NCBI GenBank assembly: GCA_016932115.1
Contig: JAFGDM010000152.1
Span: 1 to 52,039, forward strand
Source of the DNA: Deltaproteobacteria bacterium
Lineage (GTDB): Bacteria > Desulfobacterota > DSM-4660 > Desulfatiglandales > HGW-15
Length of the DNA stretch: 52,039 nucleotides
Direction: 5' to 3'
Shown here: positions 46,757 through 52,039 of the stretch, one piece after another
Numbering within the stretch: the first letter of the stretch is position 1
How the letters are laid out: each line of letters starts with the position of its first letter
Notes under the pieces: model-generated
The model's database searches: none
What the model saw: the letters and a program-made list of their open reading frames with translations, nothing else
What the model was told of the DNA's origin: nothing
Translations under genes and position numbers: made by a program

Positions 46757-47074
46757 CTATGAGGCGACCTCAATCCCTTCAATTTTCACCAGGGAAAAGG
46801 CTTGTCTATGCCCCCTTGTTCTGCGGAATCCCTTCCTGCGTTTGAATTTGAAAACAACTATTTTCTTTTTCTTATCGTGCAGTTTCAGTCGGCCCATGAC
46901 CTTGGTGTTCTCGAGATAAGGCTTTCCCACCTCAACTTTTTCACCGTCCGACGTCATAAGGACCTTATCAAAAACCACTGTCTCTCCCACCTTACCCGGC
47001 AGCTTTTCTAGAACAAGATCGTCCCCCCGGGCAACACGGTACTGTTTTCCACCTGTTTGAATAACCGCGTACAT
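46757..47074 (-). CDS. rplU: 50S ribosomal protein L21
   Basis: MYAVIQTGGKQYRV, with GAGGAG before ATG 47074. Confidence 0.95.
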   Translation of the reverse strand: MYAVIQTGGKQYRVARGDDLVLEKLPGKVGETVVFDKVLMTSDGEKVEVGKPYLENTKVMGRLKLHDKKKKIVVFKFKRRKGFRRTRGHRQAFSLVKIEGIEVAS

Positions 47075-47143: not shown

Positions 47144-48331
47144 TCAGCTTGCACCTCCTTTTCGCTCAAGAACCTCCGGTGGAACCACCGCATTCTCCGG
47201 CCAACCCTTCGGAGTAATTTGATCCGGCTTCTCTCCTTTTTTGCTCTTTAAACCGTCAAGACCCGCCCGCTTGAAATCCTCTCTCGGTGCCTTTGGAATC
47301 CTGCCGTTCAAGATCGCTTCCGAGCGAAGACGCCTACCGATGGTCTTCTCCATCAACATGCCGATTTGCAGGATCCGGTCAATGTCGATGCCTTCCACTT
47401 CAATGCCCATTTCATCGATCATTACGCACATATCCTCAAAGCTGGCCAACCCTACTACATTGGGGTCTTTATAGTAATAGGAACCGGTACCGGGTACAGG
47501 CACCCTGTCCAGAAAATTGGCCGGCTGCCCCCCCAAACCACCCAGGGTCCCTTCAAAAATTTCTACACCGGCTTGAAGAGCGGCAAGAACATTGGCCAAC
47601 CCCCAGCCCCTGGTTACATGAAAGTGGCCTACATGGAGGTCCGGGTTCGGAAGTTCGTCGAGAATCATTGAAAAATAGCGATAAACCTGATCCGGAGGCG
47701 CGGAGCCGTCATGATCTGCGTGCTCGATGTCATCCGCACCTATACTCAACCATCGTTTGGTAAATTCCAGAGCATCCTCAAAGCGGGTAGGCCCTGAGAT
47801 GGGGCTGCCCCAGATCGTGCTCACAGTTCCGCACATCTTTATCCCTGCCTCCTTGCACTTCTTGATGCACCGTTCGGCTTCCTTCCAGTATTCAGGCAGA
47901 GTGGTGCCGCTGTTGGCAAAATGGTGCTGCTCGTCCGTGGAAACCATCATGAGTACCCTATCAGGGCCACGCCCTTGCTGTTTGAGCGTGATGGCCTTGT
48001 CGACCCCGGGTTCTCGAATGGTCACAGCCGTCCATTCTACATCCTCGATCTTGACACCTTTTTTGTTCAAACGCCGGATGAAGTACTCGTCATGAACTCC
48101 CTTGAGCACTTCCTCCGCATCCCTAAATTGAGGCATGACCCTAGGGTTTCCCAAATTCGTCGCCTCCAGCCTTCGCACGCCTGCAAGTGCCAGCTCCTGT
48201 AAATAATAAATTTTAGCTTCTGTGGGAACAAAGAACTCTTCGTGCTGAAACCCGTCGCGGACAGTGATATCACCCAATCGAACTTTCTTCGGCATCCTGG
48301 GATGCGCCTTGAACATATTGTGCTCACTCAT
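47144..48331 (-). CDS. HMG-CoA-lyase-like DRE-TIM metallolyase family protein
   Basis: DITVRDGFQHEE, PRVMPQFRDAEEV and HFHVTRGWGLANVLAALQAGV...GGLGGQP align by eye with HMG-CoA lyase. ATG 48331 is preceded by AGGAGGAG. Confidence 0.8.
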   Translation of the reverse strand: MSEHNMFKAHPRMPKKVRLGDITVRDGFQHEEFFVPTEAKIYYLQELALAGVRRLEATNLGNPRVMPQFRDAEEVLKGVHDEYFIRRLNKKGVKIEDVEWTAVTIREPGVDKAITLKQQGRGPDRVLMMVSTDEQHHFANSGTTLPEYWKEAERCIKKCKEAGIKMCGTVSTIWGSPISGPTRFEDALEFTKRWLSIGADDIEHADHDGSAPPDQVYRYFSMILDELPNPDLHVGHFHVTRGWGLANVLAALQAGVEIFEGTLGGLGGQPANFLDRVPVPGTGSYYYKDPNVVGLASFEDMCVMIDEMGIEVEGIDIDRILQIGMLMEKTIGRRLRSEAILNGRIPKAPREDFKRAGLDGLKSKKGEKPDQITPKGWPENAVVPPEVLERKGGAS

Positions 48332-48348
48332 GTTGCTCCTCCTATTCA

Positions 48349-50088
48349 TTAACCCTTGATGGACCTTGGCAACAACATCTGATGATGCGGGCAAAGGCTC
48401 GCGGGATTCTGATAGCAGCTTCTGACAAAAGCCACGAAGTAATCTCTAACCCTGGCCATTGGTACAACCTCATCCACCAGCCCCGCTCTGGCGCAGTAAA
48501 GGGGTCTTGACTGATCGTAGTACTGTTTCGCAAGAGCATTCATGTTTTCGATGACGGGCTCTAGAGGCTTGCCGGAATCTTTTTCCTTGACGAGTCTTCT
48601 TGCAAAAGCGGCCACGGCAGCCGTCTCGCCATGCATCACATAGATCTCCGTGGTGCCTACACCAAGCGTGAAGGCGTTGTTTCTCGTAGCCTGCGGCCCT
48701 CCCATAATGTAGTGAGCGGCTGCAGTCCCTTTGCGCAGGACCACGCACAGCATGGGCAAGTGGGAATCTTCGATTGAGTAAATCAGGGATTGGCCGAGGC
48801 CCAGAAGCTCCGCAGCTTCGGCGATGTCTCCCACGTCAATTCCGCTCGTGTCCTGGAACCAGATGATTGGGATCTTGTCACGGCCGCAAAACATGACCAT
48901 TTCGTTCATTTTGACGAGCCCTTCCCTGTAAAGCTTGCCGCCGATCCCCATGTACTTTCCTTCTGCGTAAGCCGGGTAGTCTTTCCCCAGGAAGCCTTGG
49001 CGATTGCCGATCACCCCTACGGCAAAGCCGTCGATCCTGGCAAGCCCGCAATACACTTCCGGCCCGTAATCAGGGCGATACTCCAGATGCTCGCTTCCAT
49101 CAAAAAGCCTCGCCACCACCTGTTCAAGGCTGTATGTTCTCTTCTGATTGAAAGGAACGATATAATTGAGCTCTTCCGGGGAGTAAAGAGGCACCGCAGG
49201 TTCTGCGACCCTGAAGGTGGAAGGTTCGTACATAGGCATACCCGCCATGCATTCCCTTATGGCCTGAAGCACCCCCTCTTCGGTATTAAAGACCTTTCGC
49301 ATGAAGCCGGTCTTGTTATAGTGTATTTTGACCCCGCCCGGCGGTTCTTCCTTGAATTTTCTGGTCGCATCGATGACGGCCTCCGCACCTTCCAGGTCAA
49401 AGGAACCCTTGGGAGACATGCCGCTCACGATGCCGCCTCCCCCGACAGCCATGTTGGATTTCTCATGGGCGAAAATAATGGCAGGGCTGATGGCATGATA
49501 TCCACCGCCCGCCGGGTTGGTGCCGAACATTCCCACAATGACCGGGATGCCCTTTTCAGCCAGTTCCGCGTGCCTGAAAAAGGTTCTTCCTCCGGATCGC
49601 CTGCCCGCGTAGACCTTTTCCTGCTCCGTGAGTTTGACGCCGCTGCAATTGAGGATCCACACAAGCGGAATGTTAAGCCTTTCGGCCATGTCCTGGGCCC
49701 TGAAAACATGTTCTCGCTGGCCCGGAATCCAGGCCCCTGCCAGGACCTTGTTGTCCGATGCGATCAATACAGTTTGCCGGCCTGATATTCGAGCCAATCC
49801 GGTGATGACCCCTGTGGTCCCCTCCTGGTTGAATTCCGGGTCATAGAGGCTGTCCAGGGGGAGAAAGGTGCCCTGATCCACAAGAAGGTCGATCCGTTCC
49901 CAGGCTGTTTTCTCCCCTCTTTTGTGGAGCTTTTCAGCAGGAAGCCCTGTGTTCATTCGCTGCCCCAGGGCTTCTGAAATCCCCTGATCCACTCTGAAAA
50001 TTTCCAGGGCATTTGATTCCCCTTGCTTTTTTTCATGCTCCGAAAGGGCCTTTCCGACAGAACTCATTTGATTAAAATACGCTCTCAT
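48349..50088 (-). CDS. gcdA: Glutaconyl-CoA decarboxylase alpha subunit-type carboxyltransferase
   Basis: 579 aa. Extended blocks match GcdA as I remember it: ASDNKVLAGAWIPGQ, LNCSGVKLTEQEKVY, GIPVIVGMFGTNPAGGGYH, LGLGQSLIYSI, LRKGTAAAHY, CPHHQMLLPRSI. Confidence 0.8.
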   Translation of the reverse strand: MRAYFNQMSSVGKALSEHEKKQGESNALEIFRVDQGISEALGQRMNTGLPAEKLHKRGEKTAWERIDLLVDQGTFLPLDSLYDPEFNQEGTTGVITGLARISGRQTVLIASDNKVLAGAWIPGQREHVFRAQDMAERLNIPLVWILNCSGVKLTEQEKVYAGRRSGGRTFFRHAELAEKGIPVIVGMFGTNPAGGGYHAISPAIIFAHEKSNMAVGGGGIVSGMSPKGSFDLEGAEAVIDATRKFKEEPPGGVKIHYNKTGFMRKVFNTEEGVLQAIRECMAGMPMYEPSTFRVAEPAVPLYSPEELNYIVPFNQKRTYSLEQVVARLFDGSEHLEYRPDYGPEVYCGLARIDGFAVGVIGNRQGFLGKDYPAYAEGKYMGIGGKLYREGLVKMNEMVMFCGRDKIPIIWFQDTSGIDVGDIAEAAELLGLGQSLIYSIEDSHLPMLCVVLRKGTAAAHYIMGGPQATRNNAFTLGVGTTEIYVMHGETAAVAAFARRLVKEKDSGKPLEPVIENMNALAKQYYDQSRPLYCARAGLVDEVVPMARVRDYFVAFVRSCYQNPASLCPHHQMLLPRSIKG

Positions 50089-50089
50089 T

Positions 50090-51295
50090 TCATGAAGCCT
50101 CCTTGTAATTCGCCACTTTCTGTTCCAGCGTGGCCTTCAGGCCTGCTCGAAACCTAGGGTCCCTGTAAAGCCTGGCATCCGCCTCCGCTTCCTTTTGAAC
50201 GAAATCCTGCTCATCAAAACCGCTCCGATCGTAGCTCCCGATGAGCGCTGAGAGCGCTTCGACGGATTGAGGGGCCAGAGGCCTGCCCAACTTGCCGATC
50301 TCGTCCCCGACCTCTTTGAGGGGCTTTCCCCAGAGGTGAGCATATTTTTCCGGGTCTTTTCTCCTTTCCACCTCTTCGGAGATCTCCGCCTCAAGGGCAA
50401 GAGCAGCAGGTTCCTCCACTAGAGGAATCCGAGTTTCATCACCTGTTGCAATCTCAAGCGCCCCGGGTATGAGGATCATGCCCGTTTCTTCATCGTGTTT
50501 TTCCAGCGCCTCTGCGTAGGACGCCTTATCGGCTTTCGGGTCTCCCGCCCTTTGCATCCGCGGGAAGGGGAGGGAAATATCCACCACTACGTTGTAAATC
50601 CCGATCGCTTTGAGCTTGTCCGCCTTGACCTCCTTCCCGGTCATGGCCATGGCCCGTGCATTCCGAGGCCCGGCCTTGACGATCGCCCTGGCCACCCCCG
50701 ACCAACCCGGCAGAAGGCCGATCATGGCTTCGCTGAAGCACATGCCGCTCCTGGAATCCCCCACGATATAGTCGGACATAAGCGGAATCTCCGCCGAGCC
50801 TCCAAACCGCGTGCCGCCCCCGCAGACGGCCACCGTTCGCAGGTGCTGCGCCAGCTTTCGCATCTTTCCGTGTAGAGCGACACCTTTTTTCAATCGGCTG
50901 TCGGCCCATGTGTAGAGCTCGTCTATTTCTTCCGTGGAAGCACCCGCTCTTTCTTTCTCCTTCTTCATGGCCAGTGTTTTGTCCAGTTTCTCCAGGCTTT
51001 CCTTGAGATCTCCCCCTGCGTGGACCGGATCATTGGCGCTGACCATCATGAAAAACTGCAGATCTTCCTTTCTGCCGTAGACCCGGTCAAGGCCCTCTAA
51101 ATAGGCATCGAGGGCCGGGTTTCCCACCTGGTGCACCGGGGGGTTGTAGTAGCAAAGGATTGCACCCTTTTTCCCCTGGAATGAGACTTCCTCTATAACT
51201 AAATAGATGGAGCTTTCAAACCATTCGTAAATGGTTCCGAGTCGCTCCATCCCACTGATTTTTCCAGATCTGAGAAGTCTGAGCGGGCCTTTCAT
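50090..51295 (-). CDS. Enoyl-CoA hydratase/isomerase (crotonase) superfamily protein with a roughly 130-aa C-terminal extension
   Basis: Crotonase core VAVCGGGTRFGGSAEIPLMSDYIV...FSEAMIGLLPGWSG. GGAGAGGAT precedes ATG 51295. Confidence 0.75.
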   Translation of the reverse strand: MKGPLRLLRSGKISGMERLGTIYEWFESSIYLVIEEVSFQGKKGAILCYYNPPVHQVGNPALDAYLEGLDRVYGRKEDLQFFMMVSANDPVHAGGDLKESLEKLDKTLAMKKEKERAGASTEEIDELYTWADSRLKKGVALHGKMRKLAQHLRTVAVCGGGTRFGGSAEIPLMSDYIVGDSRSGMCFSEAMIGLLPGWSGVARAIVKAGPRNARAMAMTGKEVKADKLKAIGIYNVVVDISLPFPRMQRAGDPKADKASYAEALEKHDEETGMILIPGALEIATGDETRIPLVEEPAALALEAEISEEVERRKDPEKYAHLWGKPLKEVGDEIGKLGRPLAPQSVEALSALIGSYDRSGFDEQDFVQKEAEADARLYRDPRFRAGLKATLEQKVANYKEAS

Positions 51296-51344
51296 TTTAT
51301 CCTCTCCGTATCAGTCAGCCGACTAATTCTTTACTTTTACTAAA

Positions 51345-51412
51345 TATCAATATTTGATAAATTTTTACGCTTTGTCAAGGCTTATTCACGCCTTACGGTT
51401 AATTTTATCAAA
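51345..51412. promoter_or_regulatory. TATCAA-TAT-TTGATA inverted repeat plus the complementary 9-mers TTTGATAAA / TTTATCAAA in a divergent intergenic region
   Basis: Inverted repeat at 51345-51359. TTTGATAAA lies at 51353-51361 and its reverse complement at 51404-51412. The region lies between the crotonase operon and the XRE-cupin regulator. Confidence 0.3.
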
Positions 51413-51439
51413 GTAATCCAAGGCGATCGAACTTTTTTA

Positions 51440-51468
51440 TTTACAAATACTTAAGATTTTCGATAATT
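51440..51468 (+). promoter_or_regulatory. Sigma-70-like promoter for the XRE-cupin regulator
   Basis: TTTACA-N16-GATAAT, about 30 nt upstream of GTG 51497. Confidence 0.35.
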
Positions 51469-51496
51469 ATGCCATATTCCTGGCGAGGAACTATTC

Positions 51497-52039
51497 GTGA
51501 ATCTCGGGGCTTTGATCCGCAAGAATCGCAAAGAGCGAAAACTGACCTTGAAAACAGTCGCTGAAAAAGCCGGCGTTTCCGAGGGTTTTCTGAGCCAGGT
51601 GGAAAACAGCGTGAGCTCCCCTTCGGTGGACACCCTGGTCAGTATTTGCGCCGCCATGGGCGTCAGCGCCGGGGATCTTCTGAACCAGGCCGGTACGCAC
51701 GAGACCCTCATGGTGATCCATAAGGAAGAGTGGGACGACATCGAAATCCCCAAGGCTGGTTTTGTGACCCGACGATTCATACCGCCGGAGAGCCGCTCCA
51801 TCATCGATAGCGCCGTTATCTTTCTCAACCCGGAAACAAGCATTCCTGTGCGAAAAAACATCAAAAACGGCCAGGAAGTTCTCTGCGTGCTCAGAGGATC
51901 CCTGGAGCTCCTCCATGGCGATCAGACCATACCCCTTTCAGAAGGGGACGCCGCACATTTCTACGCTAATCCCGCCAAACAGTACATCACCAACAACGGT
52001 AAAGAGGTTACGGTCGTTCTCTGGGTAGGTACAGCCTAG
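51497..52039 (+). CDS. XRE-family HTH transcriptional regulator with a C-terminal cupin domain
   Basis: HTH_3 segment LTLKTVAEKAGVSEGFLSQVENSVSSPSVDTLVSICAAMGV. Cupin-like C-terminus (G.E.L.VL.G...L..GD..H..AN). GTG start, with the stop at the last 3 nt of the window. Confidence 0.85.
   Translation: MNLGALIRKNRKERKLTLKTVAEKAGVSEGFLSQVENSVSSPSVDTLVSICAAMGVSAGDLLNQAGTHETLMVIHKEEWDDIEIPKAGFVTRRFIPPESRSIIDSAVIFLNPETSIPVRKNIKNGQEVLCVLRGSLELLHGDQTIPLSEGDAAHFYANPAKQYITNNGKEVTVVLWVGTA

Follow-up and report, generated by a model that had tools for sequence, protein, structure and literature searches.

Organization of the operon

The DNA analyzed here is a stretch of 52,039 nucleotides (the window) that constitutes the entire contig C182 (JAFGDM010000152.1) of the Deltaproteobacteria bacterium assembly GCA_016932115.1, a 3.73-Mb genome in 323 contigs whose closest relatives are metagenome-assembled genomes (MAGs) labelled Desulfatiglandales and Desulfobacteraceae. 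It carries an operon of three co-directional minus-strand open reading frames (ORFs), which encode a 401-amino-acid (AA) crotonase, a 579-AA carboxyltransferase and an HMGL-like protein, that is, one resembling 3-hydroxy-3-methylglutaryl-CoA (HMG-CoA) lyase. We think it probable that these genes form the central part of a Desulfobacterota module for leucine/isovalerate catabolism of the liu type, in which a paralogue of GcdA, the carboxyltransferase of glutaconyl-CoA decarboxylase, fills the slot of the beta subunit of 3-methylcrotonyl-CoA carboxylase (MCC-beta). The three genes are as follows:

50090..51295, minus strand: ECH401, a 401-AA extended crotonase-superfamily protein, predicted (methyl)glutaconyl-CoA hydratase (ECH_1 match, Glu pair, AlphaFold2 model)
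48349..50088, minus strand: GcdA-type carboxyltransferase, 579 AAs (703 bits to 1PIX)
47144..48331, minus strand: extLyase, a protein with the HMG-CoA lyase fold, about 395 AAs from M22 (alignments, AlphaFold2 model)

A preliminary description of this region, made from the sequence alone, had recognized a three-gene operon with a GcdA-type transferase and an extended crotonase, and all of these are found at the above positions. The ORF of the third gene extends from 47144 to 48394 and is open up to the latter position; we place its start at M22 (coordinate 48331) because its 390–392-AA relatives begin with MSE. With this start, which is common to the relatives, the transferase and lyase genes are separated by 17 nt, and the gap between the ECH401 and transferase genes is 1 nt.

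The carboxyltransferase

The product of the central gene matches the Pfam family Carboxyl_trans (344 bits), and its match to the A. fermentans GcdA (1PIX) spans residues 2–578; the C. symbiosum GcdA (3GF3) follows with 676 bits. It is about 60% identical to these proteins over its full length and has the same two-domain carboxyltransferase organization, while its best matches outside the GcdA group (the beta subunits of MCC, PCC and GCC, and AccD1) reach at most 164 bits. The GcdA assignment made in the preliminary description thus holds, with no grouping with MCC-beta, and by sequence, though not by gene context, the transferase is a genuine GcdA-type enzyme. Unlike the known GcdA proteins, it is not encoded beside gcdB, gcdC or gcdD or a glutaryl-CoA dehydrogenase (GDH) gene, but is set between a hydratase and a lyase.

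A second gcdA, whose product is 62% identical to the operon copy, is present on contig C137, where it follows a GDH-like acyl-CoA dehydrogenase (ACAD) gene. This is the order expected of a non-decarboxylating GDH acting with GcdA, and as judged from the predicted gene products the C137 pair covers the classical role. Most single-copy gcdA homologues in our sample of the phylum likewise follow an ACAD gene. In a quick tree the transferases linked to the trio form a clade of their own (SH-aLRT 100), separate from the copies that are linked to GDH in this phylum, which fits a GcdA paralogue that was recruited to a new set of partners. Directly after the GDH-linked gcdA on C137 (C137:20173-21992; locus L017:11174-12993) there are genes for two proteins of 346 and 242 AAs with GcvH (lipoyl-carrier-type) domains. 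These were considered as carriers and rejected, as 17 other genomes of the phylum do not have such genes downstream of their gcdA.

The lyase

ExtLyase matches the Pfam family HMGL-like with 79.6 bits, and its AlphaFold2 model (mean pLDDT 92.7) matches HMG-CoA lyases at target TM scores of 0.91–0.95. The HMG-CoA lyase 6NDS is found by Foldseek with an E-value of 1.7e-28 (target TM 0.92), followed by isopropylmalate and homocitrate synthases at about 1e-16 and by 5S, OadA and pyruvate carboxylase (PC) proteins at about 1e-13. Like the solved HMG-CoA lyases (human 2CW6/3MP3, B. subtilis YngG 1YDO and A. baumannii 6NDS), it has the DRE-TIM fold, the RDG motif (VRDGFQ) and the HxH metal ligands (HFHVTRG), all of which align to the corresponding segments of those enzymes. 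On the other hand, its GGLGGQP falls on GGLGGCP in HMMER alignments to three solved HMG-CoA lyases, so that a Gln takes the place of the catalytic Cys of this loop (Cys266 of human HMGCL). The preliminary description had called this Cys-to-Gln replacement, with RDG and HxH retained, and the alignments agree; a Gln stands at this position in every member of the extLyase clade examined from 80 loci.

The protein also differs from these lyases by a Leu where the human enzyme has an Asn metal ligand, by two insertions and by a conserved basic C-terminal tail of about 60 AAs. The earlier of the insertions is 13–17 AAs long. The other, described at first as roughly 20 AAs, is present directly after the loop and measures 17 AAs in a 36-sequence alignment, in which it carries a conserved GTGxYYYxDPN motif.

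A Carboxyl_trans protein and an HMGL-like protein are also paired in transcarboxylase, as its 12S and 5S subunits; some members of the family are named pyruvate carboxyltransferase by NCBI, and none of the gene arrangements described below includes a biotin carboxylase gene. The HMGL-like protein could accordingly be thought of as a 5S/OadA-like carboxyltransferase that, together with a biotin carrier and the GcdA-type subunit, makes up a transcarboxylase. We rejected this reading, which we hold to be extremely improbable, on sequence, fold and motif. ExtLyase is far closer to HMG-CoA lyase than to 5S, OadA or PC in both sequence and fold, and it scores just 15–18 bits on the NCBIfam models for 5S/OadA. 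Its segment HADHDG corresponds to GDTxG of the lyases and has an Ala where 5S/OadA-type enzymes have the carbamylated, metal-bridging Lys of their KDMAG-type motif. In many loci, moreover, the lyase gene accompanies a hydratase gene where no transferase gene is present.

Gln-type HMGL-like proteins that are more distantly related (36–52% identical) were also considered as a lead to function and set aside, because they are encoded in unrelated contexts, among genes for lipopolysaccharide (LPS), polysaccharides and radical-SAM proteins. The source genome has a second HMGL-like gene, divergent in sequence (G000, C224:1546-2538, minus strand); it has REYGQ for RDG and the loop GGTGGCV, is about 310–330 AAs long, and is paired with a FabD-like acyltransferase gene. 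Genes of this type converge on the lyase gene in about 20 of 32 trio-type loci (e.g., L043–L055), while in the source genome the gene is on a contig other than that of the operon, among LPS-core genes.

The extended crotonase

The ECH_1 domain matches ECH401 over residues 161–238 only (35.7 bits). The Glu pair of the hydratases is retained as E169 and E189, as judged by alignment to solved hydratases, and is invariant in 21 homologues. The AlphaFold2 model of ECH401 (mean pLDDT 80.6) consists of a crotonase core and a helical C-terminal extension, an extra 140–160 AAs or so, and its best matches in the PDB are the hydratase-plus-linker parts of FadB-type enzymes.

Distribution and gene arrangements

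All three proteins have many relatives at 67–93% identity that are annotated only generically. In a scan of one genome per species the lyase was found in at least 550 species, almost all of them Desulfobacterota, and of 251 genomes sampled from the order to which Desulfosarcina alkanivorans belongs, 184 have it (about three quarters of the sampled Desulfobacterales). We compared the 80 best related loci, to which the following counts apply. The hydratase gene precedes the lyase gene wherever the upstream flank is present, and five arrangements occur:

Type A: ECH401, GcdA-type transferase, lyase; 28 loci and 4 more cut by contig ends
Type B: ECH401, lyase; 4 loci
Type C: MCC-beta-type transferase, 260-AA hydratase, lyase; 7 loci
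Type D: ACAD resembling isovaleryl-CoA dehydrogenase (IVD), Cys-type HMG-CoA lyase, 260-AA hydratase, lyase; 6 loci (L065, L087, L088, L091, L092 and L098)
Type E: 260-AA hydratase, lyase, acetoacetate-CoA-ligase-type gene, beside a Liv-type ABC system; 14 loci

The trio is therefore well conserved, a point on which the preliminary description had asked for a check, and all of the trio-type loci are in Desulfobacterota MAGs; another family of the phylum has a trio that is more divergent, its crotonase being 55%, its transferase 64% and its lyase 50% identical. In A- and B-type loci the ECH401 gene always comes immediately before the transferase gene or the lyase gene. A biotin carboxylase gene is present in cis in none of the five arrangements, and its absence is thus general for these clusters in Desulfobacterota and not peculiar to the operon studied here. 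In the four type B loci (L067, L072, L074 and L077) an Ap4A-phosphorylase/ATP-adenylyltransferase-like gene directly follows the lyase gene.

The genes that accompany the lyase gene point to leucine catabolism. Homologues 64–72% identical to it are encoded in clusters with the order MCC-beta, hydratase, lyase, acetoacetate-CoA ligase; an acetoacetate-CoA ligase gene adjoins the lyase gene in at least 15 related loci; and an IVD orthologue (68–72% identical to that of Desulfococcus multivorans, see below) adjoins the trio in 9 A-type loci. An MCC-beta orthologue is absent from the source genome and from five other trio genomes, one of them a complete chromosome (best match at most 34% identical), and ECH401 is absent from five genomes with the MCC-beta (C) or E type. 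In the genomes tested, the trio and the form with MCC-beta and the 260-AA hydratase exclude each other around one common lyase.

These neighbourhoods bear on a reading in which the trio acts on the unmethylated series, interconverting crotonyl-CoA and glutaconyl-CoA and hydrating the latter to 3-hydroxyglutaryl-CoA; a cleavage to acetyl-CoA and malonate semialdehyde, or the reverse condensation, would follow. The transferase is after all a bona fide GcdA whose conserved residues are essentially those of the GDH-linked copies, and the altered loop of the lyase could mean that its 3-hydroxyacyl-CoA substrate is a different one. We regard this as unlikely, given the coupling of the lyase homologues to acetoacetate-CoA ligase and MCC-beta, the IVD orthologue beside the trio and the mutual exclusion just described; moreover, crotonyl-CoA needs no such bypass, being handled by ordinary beta-oxidation.

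Relationship to the isovalerate cluster of D. multivorans

By proteomics, Dörries et al. (PMC5109826) found AcsA6, EchA2, Mcc and HmgL of D. multivorans only when the cells had been grown on 3-methylbutanoate; they list hmgL (Dmul_28460) as a reverse-strand gene at 3210170-3211339 whose product has 390 AAs. In the single-contig genome G122 the lyase match lies at C1:3210195-3211304 on the minus strand, and from these coordinates it is taken to be Dmul_28460 of D. multivorans. This lyase is 63.6% identical to extLyase, with which it shares the GGLGGQP loop, the insertion and the tail. The genes around it encode an ACAD resembling IVD, a hydratase of 260 AAs, a transferase of the MCC-beta type and a ligase that scores 941 bits on the acetoacetate-CoA ligase model TIGR01217 (cut-off 521). 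Since the cluster is induced by isovalerate and its last enzyme consumes acetoacetate, the lyase family fits the role of an HMG-CoA lyase.

The operon would thus resemble the liu pathway (Pseudomonas liuABCDE; Dmul_28430-28480 of D. multivorans DSM 2059, PMC5109826) in carboxylating the gamma-methyl group of an enoyl-CoA, hydrating the product and cleaving it; its lyase is homologous to HmgL of D. multivorans, and orthologues of IVD and acetoacetate-CoA ligase are present in the genome. It differs in having a GcdA-type in place of an MCC-beta-type transferase and a 401-AA crotonase in place of the 260-AA hydratase, in lacking MCC-alpha (biotin carboxylase plus carrier), and in that its lyase does not have the catalytic Cys of LiuE/HMGCL. 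The preliminary description had left the substrate open among glutaconyl-CoA, methylglutaconyl-CoA and other dicarboxylic acyl-CoAs, and had allowed for the carboxylating direction; the clusters with MCC-beta and acetoacetate-CoA ligase, together with the induction by isovalerate, favour the methylglutaconyl (leucine) option among these. Its statement that the likeness to the leucine pathway is superficial does not stand up as well, for in light of the lyase-homologue clusters and the absence of MCC-beta from the trio genomes the likeness is probably real.

The same family of reactions might instead, or in addition, remove 3-methyl branches from longer acyl-CoAs in the manner of the Atu pathway, with isoprenoid acids or the products of branched alkanes as substrates. 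An oversized hydratase and altered lyase loops could accommodate larger substituents, genes for AMP-forming ligases and an FAD/FeS oxidoreductase adjoin the trio in related loci, and the carriers include lineages annotated as Desulfatiglandales as well as Desulfosarcina alkanivorans. Even so, we consider it quite unlikely, as isovalerate is the only substrate to which an experiment links these genes, the partners conserved with them are acetoacetate-CoA ligase and a short ACAD of the IVD type, and GcdA-type sites are known for C5 dicarboxylyl-CoA substrates.

Partners encoded elsewhere in the genome

The source genome encodes an IVD orthologue on C174 (an ACAD 68% identical to that of the D. 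multivorans cluster), and a ligase on C183 that is 61% identical to the product of an acetoacetate-CoA-ligase-type gene found in related loci; the D. multivorans homologue of that product scores above the TIGR01217 cut-off. Orthologues of MCC-beta and of the 260-AA hydratase (ECH260) are missing from the source genome, as is a Cys-type HMG-CoA lyase. With the first and last enzymes kept and those three missing, the trio fills exactly the missing steps.

The window contains no OAD_beta, biotinyl or biotin carboxylase gene, in accord with the preliminary description, which had noted that neither a biotin carrier nor a membrane subunit is encoded in cis; such genes are present on other contigs. 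Two OAD_beta (GcdB-type) genes are on C92 and C302 with no alpha-subunit or carrier gene adjoining, the sole small biotinyl protein (70 AAs) is encoded on C202 beside methylmalonyl-CoA mutase, and the single biotin carboxylase gene lies beside a PycB-like gene on C38. The search that had been proposed for gcdB and biotin-carrier genes does find gcdB-like and biotin-carrier genes in trans, none of them assignable to the operon's transferase. In the complete trio genome G002 and in the D. multivorans genome the biotin carboxylase gene is likewise single and far from the cluster.

G000, G002 and G122 each have one biotin carboxylase gene, but their genes for carboxyltransferases (GcdA-type, PCC-beta-like, MCC-beta-type or AccA/D-like) number four to six. 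These numbers suggest that one carboxylase or carrier is common to several transferases, or that biotin enzymes hand carboxyl groups to one another. Candidate sources of carboxybiotin for the operon are the shared single biotin carboxylase, a GcdB-type Na+ pump running in reverse, and a different biotin enzyme that would pass on its carboxyl group.

GcdA enzymes are decarboxylase subunits, and with two GcdB-type genes in the genome the operon might run in the decarboxylating direction, from HMG-CoA through 3-methylglutaconyl-CoA to 3-methylcrotonyl-CoA, and so feed isovaleryl-CoA into iso-branched lipids or conserve energy by way of the Na+ pump. A route with such a decarboxylation is known in Myxococcus, as cited in PMC13614307. 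The LiuC and AibA/AibB route of Myxococcus xanthus resembles the operon in interconverting HMG-CoA, 3-methylglutaconyl-CoA and 3-methylcrotonyl-CoA without a classical MCC, but AibAB is a biotin-independent decarboxylase of the CoA-transferase fold, and the route serves biosynthesis, with HMG-CoA synthase and not a lyase at its start. The third gene of the operon encodes a lyase and not an HMG-CoA synthase, and the homologous clusters are catabolic, isovalerate-induced and equipped with acetoacetate-CoA ligase, all of which makes the decarboxylating direction improbable in our view.

In a separate part of the genome (C116; locus L020:6994-12476) a PCC-beta-like carboxyltransferase gene has an unusual neighbourhood, being located between a hydantoinase-B/oxoprolinase-family gene and a gene for a FadB-like fused dehydrogenase-hydratase.

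A probable liu-type pathway with substituted enzymes

The trio is most likely a variant of the liu pathway in which a GcdA-type transferase, an oversized hydratase and a Cys-less lyase stand in place of the textbook enzymes. Seven lines of evidence lead us to this reading: the link of the lyase to D. multivorans, the constant hydratase partner, the mutual exclusion with the MCC-beta form, the IVD neighbour, the filling of the gap in the genome's own set of enzymes, the separate classical gcdA, and the Glu pair of ECH401. In the pathway that we envisage, the IVD encoded on C174 would make 3-methylcrotonyl-CoA, and the GcdA-type transferase would move CO2 from carboxybiotin onto its gamma-methyl group to give 3-methylglutaconyl-CoA, the same vinylogous chemistry as that relating crotonyl-CoA and glutaconyl-CoA. 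ECH401 would hydrate this product to HMG-CoA, the Cys-less lyase would split HMG-CoA into acetyl-CoA and acetoacetate, and the C183 acetoacetate-CoA ligase would activate the acetoacetate. The substrate, the direction and the cleavage of HMG-CoA by a Gln-type lyase are all parts of this scheme that we infer.

Several observations weigh against the scheme. The experimental support comes from a homologue that is 64% identical and sits in a different gene arrangement, and in the source genome the IVD and ligase genes are on contigs other than that of the operon, for which no dedicated biotin carboxylase or carrier is seen. A single clade-specific position (M399, where the others have T) separates the trio-type transferases from the GDH-linked GcdAs, so their sequence displays no adaptation to a 3-methyl substrate and gives no clue to the substrate. 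ExtLyase lacks the catalytic Cys, has Leu aligned to the Asn metal ligand of human HMG-CoA lyase, and scores 152.2 bits on the NCBIfam model NF004283 (HMG-CoA lyase), below the cut-off of 246. Finally, the six D-type operons encode a canonical Cys-type HMG-CoA lyase beside extLyase and no carboxyltransferase in cis, and the job of extLyase may be a different one there. When five D-type genomes were searched for transferases, four were found to carry a GDH-linked gcdA and one an MCC-beta gene elsewhere. The canonical Cys-type HMG-CoA lyases of the complete carrier genomes G001 and G002 are not in a liu-like context, which neither backs nor rules out a division of labour between the two lyases.

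A more far-reaching version of the scheme is possible, although we have clear doubts about it: 3-methylcrotonyl-CoA might be carboxylated without a dedicated ATP-dependent carboxylase, the GcdA paralogue drawing its carboxybiotin from a GcdB/GcdC-type Na+ pump working in reverse or, by transcarboxylation, from another biotin enzyme, and the lyase might use a new, Cys-independent catalytic loop, perhaps involving the conserved Tyr triplet.

Regulator and flanking genes

Upstream of the operon are the following features:

51296..51496, no strand: divergent control region, containing a sigma-70-like site
51497..52039, plus strand: XRE-HTH/cupin transcriptional regulator, 180 AAs, divergent (HTH_3 48.5 bits, Cupin_2 31.1 bits)

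The preliminary description had placed an XRE-cupin regulator on one side of the operon and rplU on the other, and we find both. The XRE/cupin protein may control the operon; a regulator 72% identical to it precedes the trio in related loci. The sigma-70-like site, TTGACA-N18-AATATT at 51378-51349 on the minus strand, is a weakly indicated candidate for the operon's promoter, the count of such sites in the region being no higher than in shuffled sequence. On the other flank rplU (46757-47074) is followed by rpmA, obgE, proB, proA and nadD.

The contig ends exactly at the stop codon of the regulator gene, 52039. In relatives a block with an AMP-forming ligase gene and a PCC-beta-like transferase gene precedes the regulator gene; in the source genome this block is in the middle of contig C200, and therefore either the neighbourhood has been rearranged or the assembly was broken at 52039.

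Implications

Searches of the available literature turned up no account of the trio. Automatic names such as "glutaconyl-CoA decarboxylase" and "pyruvate carboxyltransferase" would mislead metabolic reconstructions from metagenomes. To our knowledge the Cys is held to be catalytic in all characterized HMG-CoA lyases, and the Cys-less lyase is a natural test of the mechanism of that enzyme. Branched-chain fatty acids from the decay of protein are major substrates in anoxic sediments, where Desulfobacterota are the main complete oxidizers. That the liu-type clusters observed here in these bacteria lack the ATP-using half of methylcrotonyl-CoA carboxylase raises the question of how energy-limited anaerobes pay for a costly carboxylation. 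A large uncultured group among them also appears to have exchanged the transferase for an enzyme of the glutaconyl-CoA decarboxylase type, and the trio offers a concrete set of three proteins on which the question of how the carboxylation is paid for can be tested.

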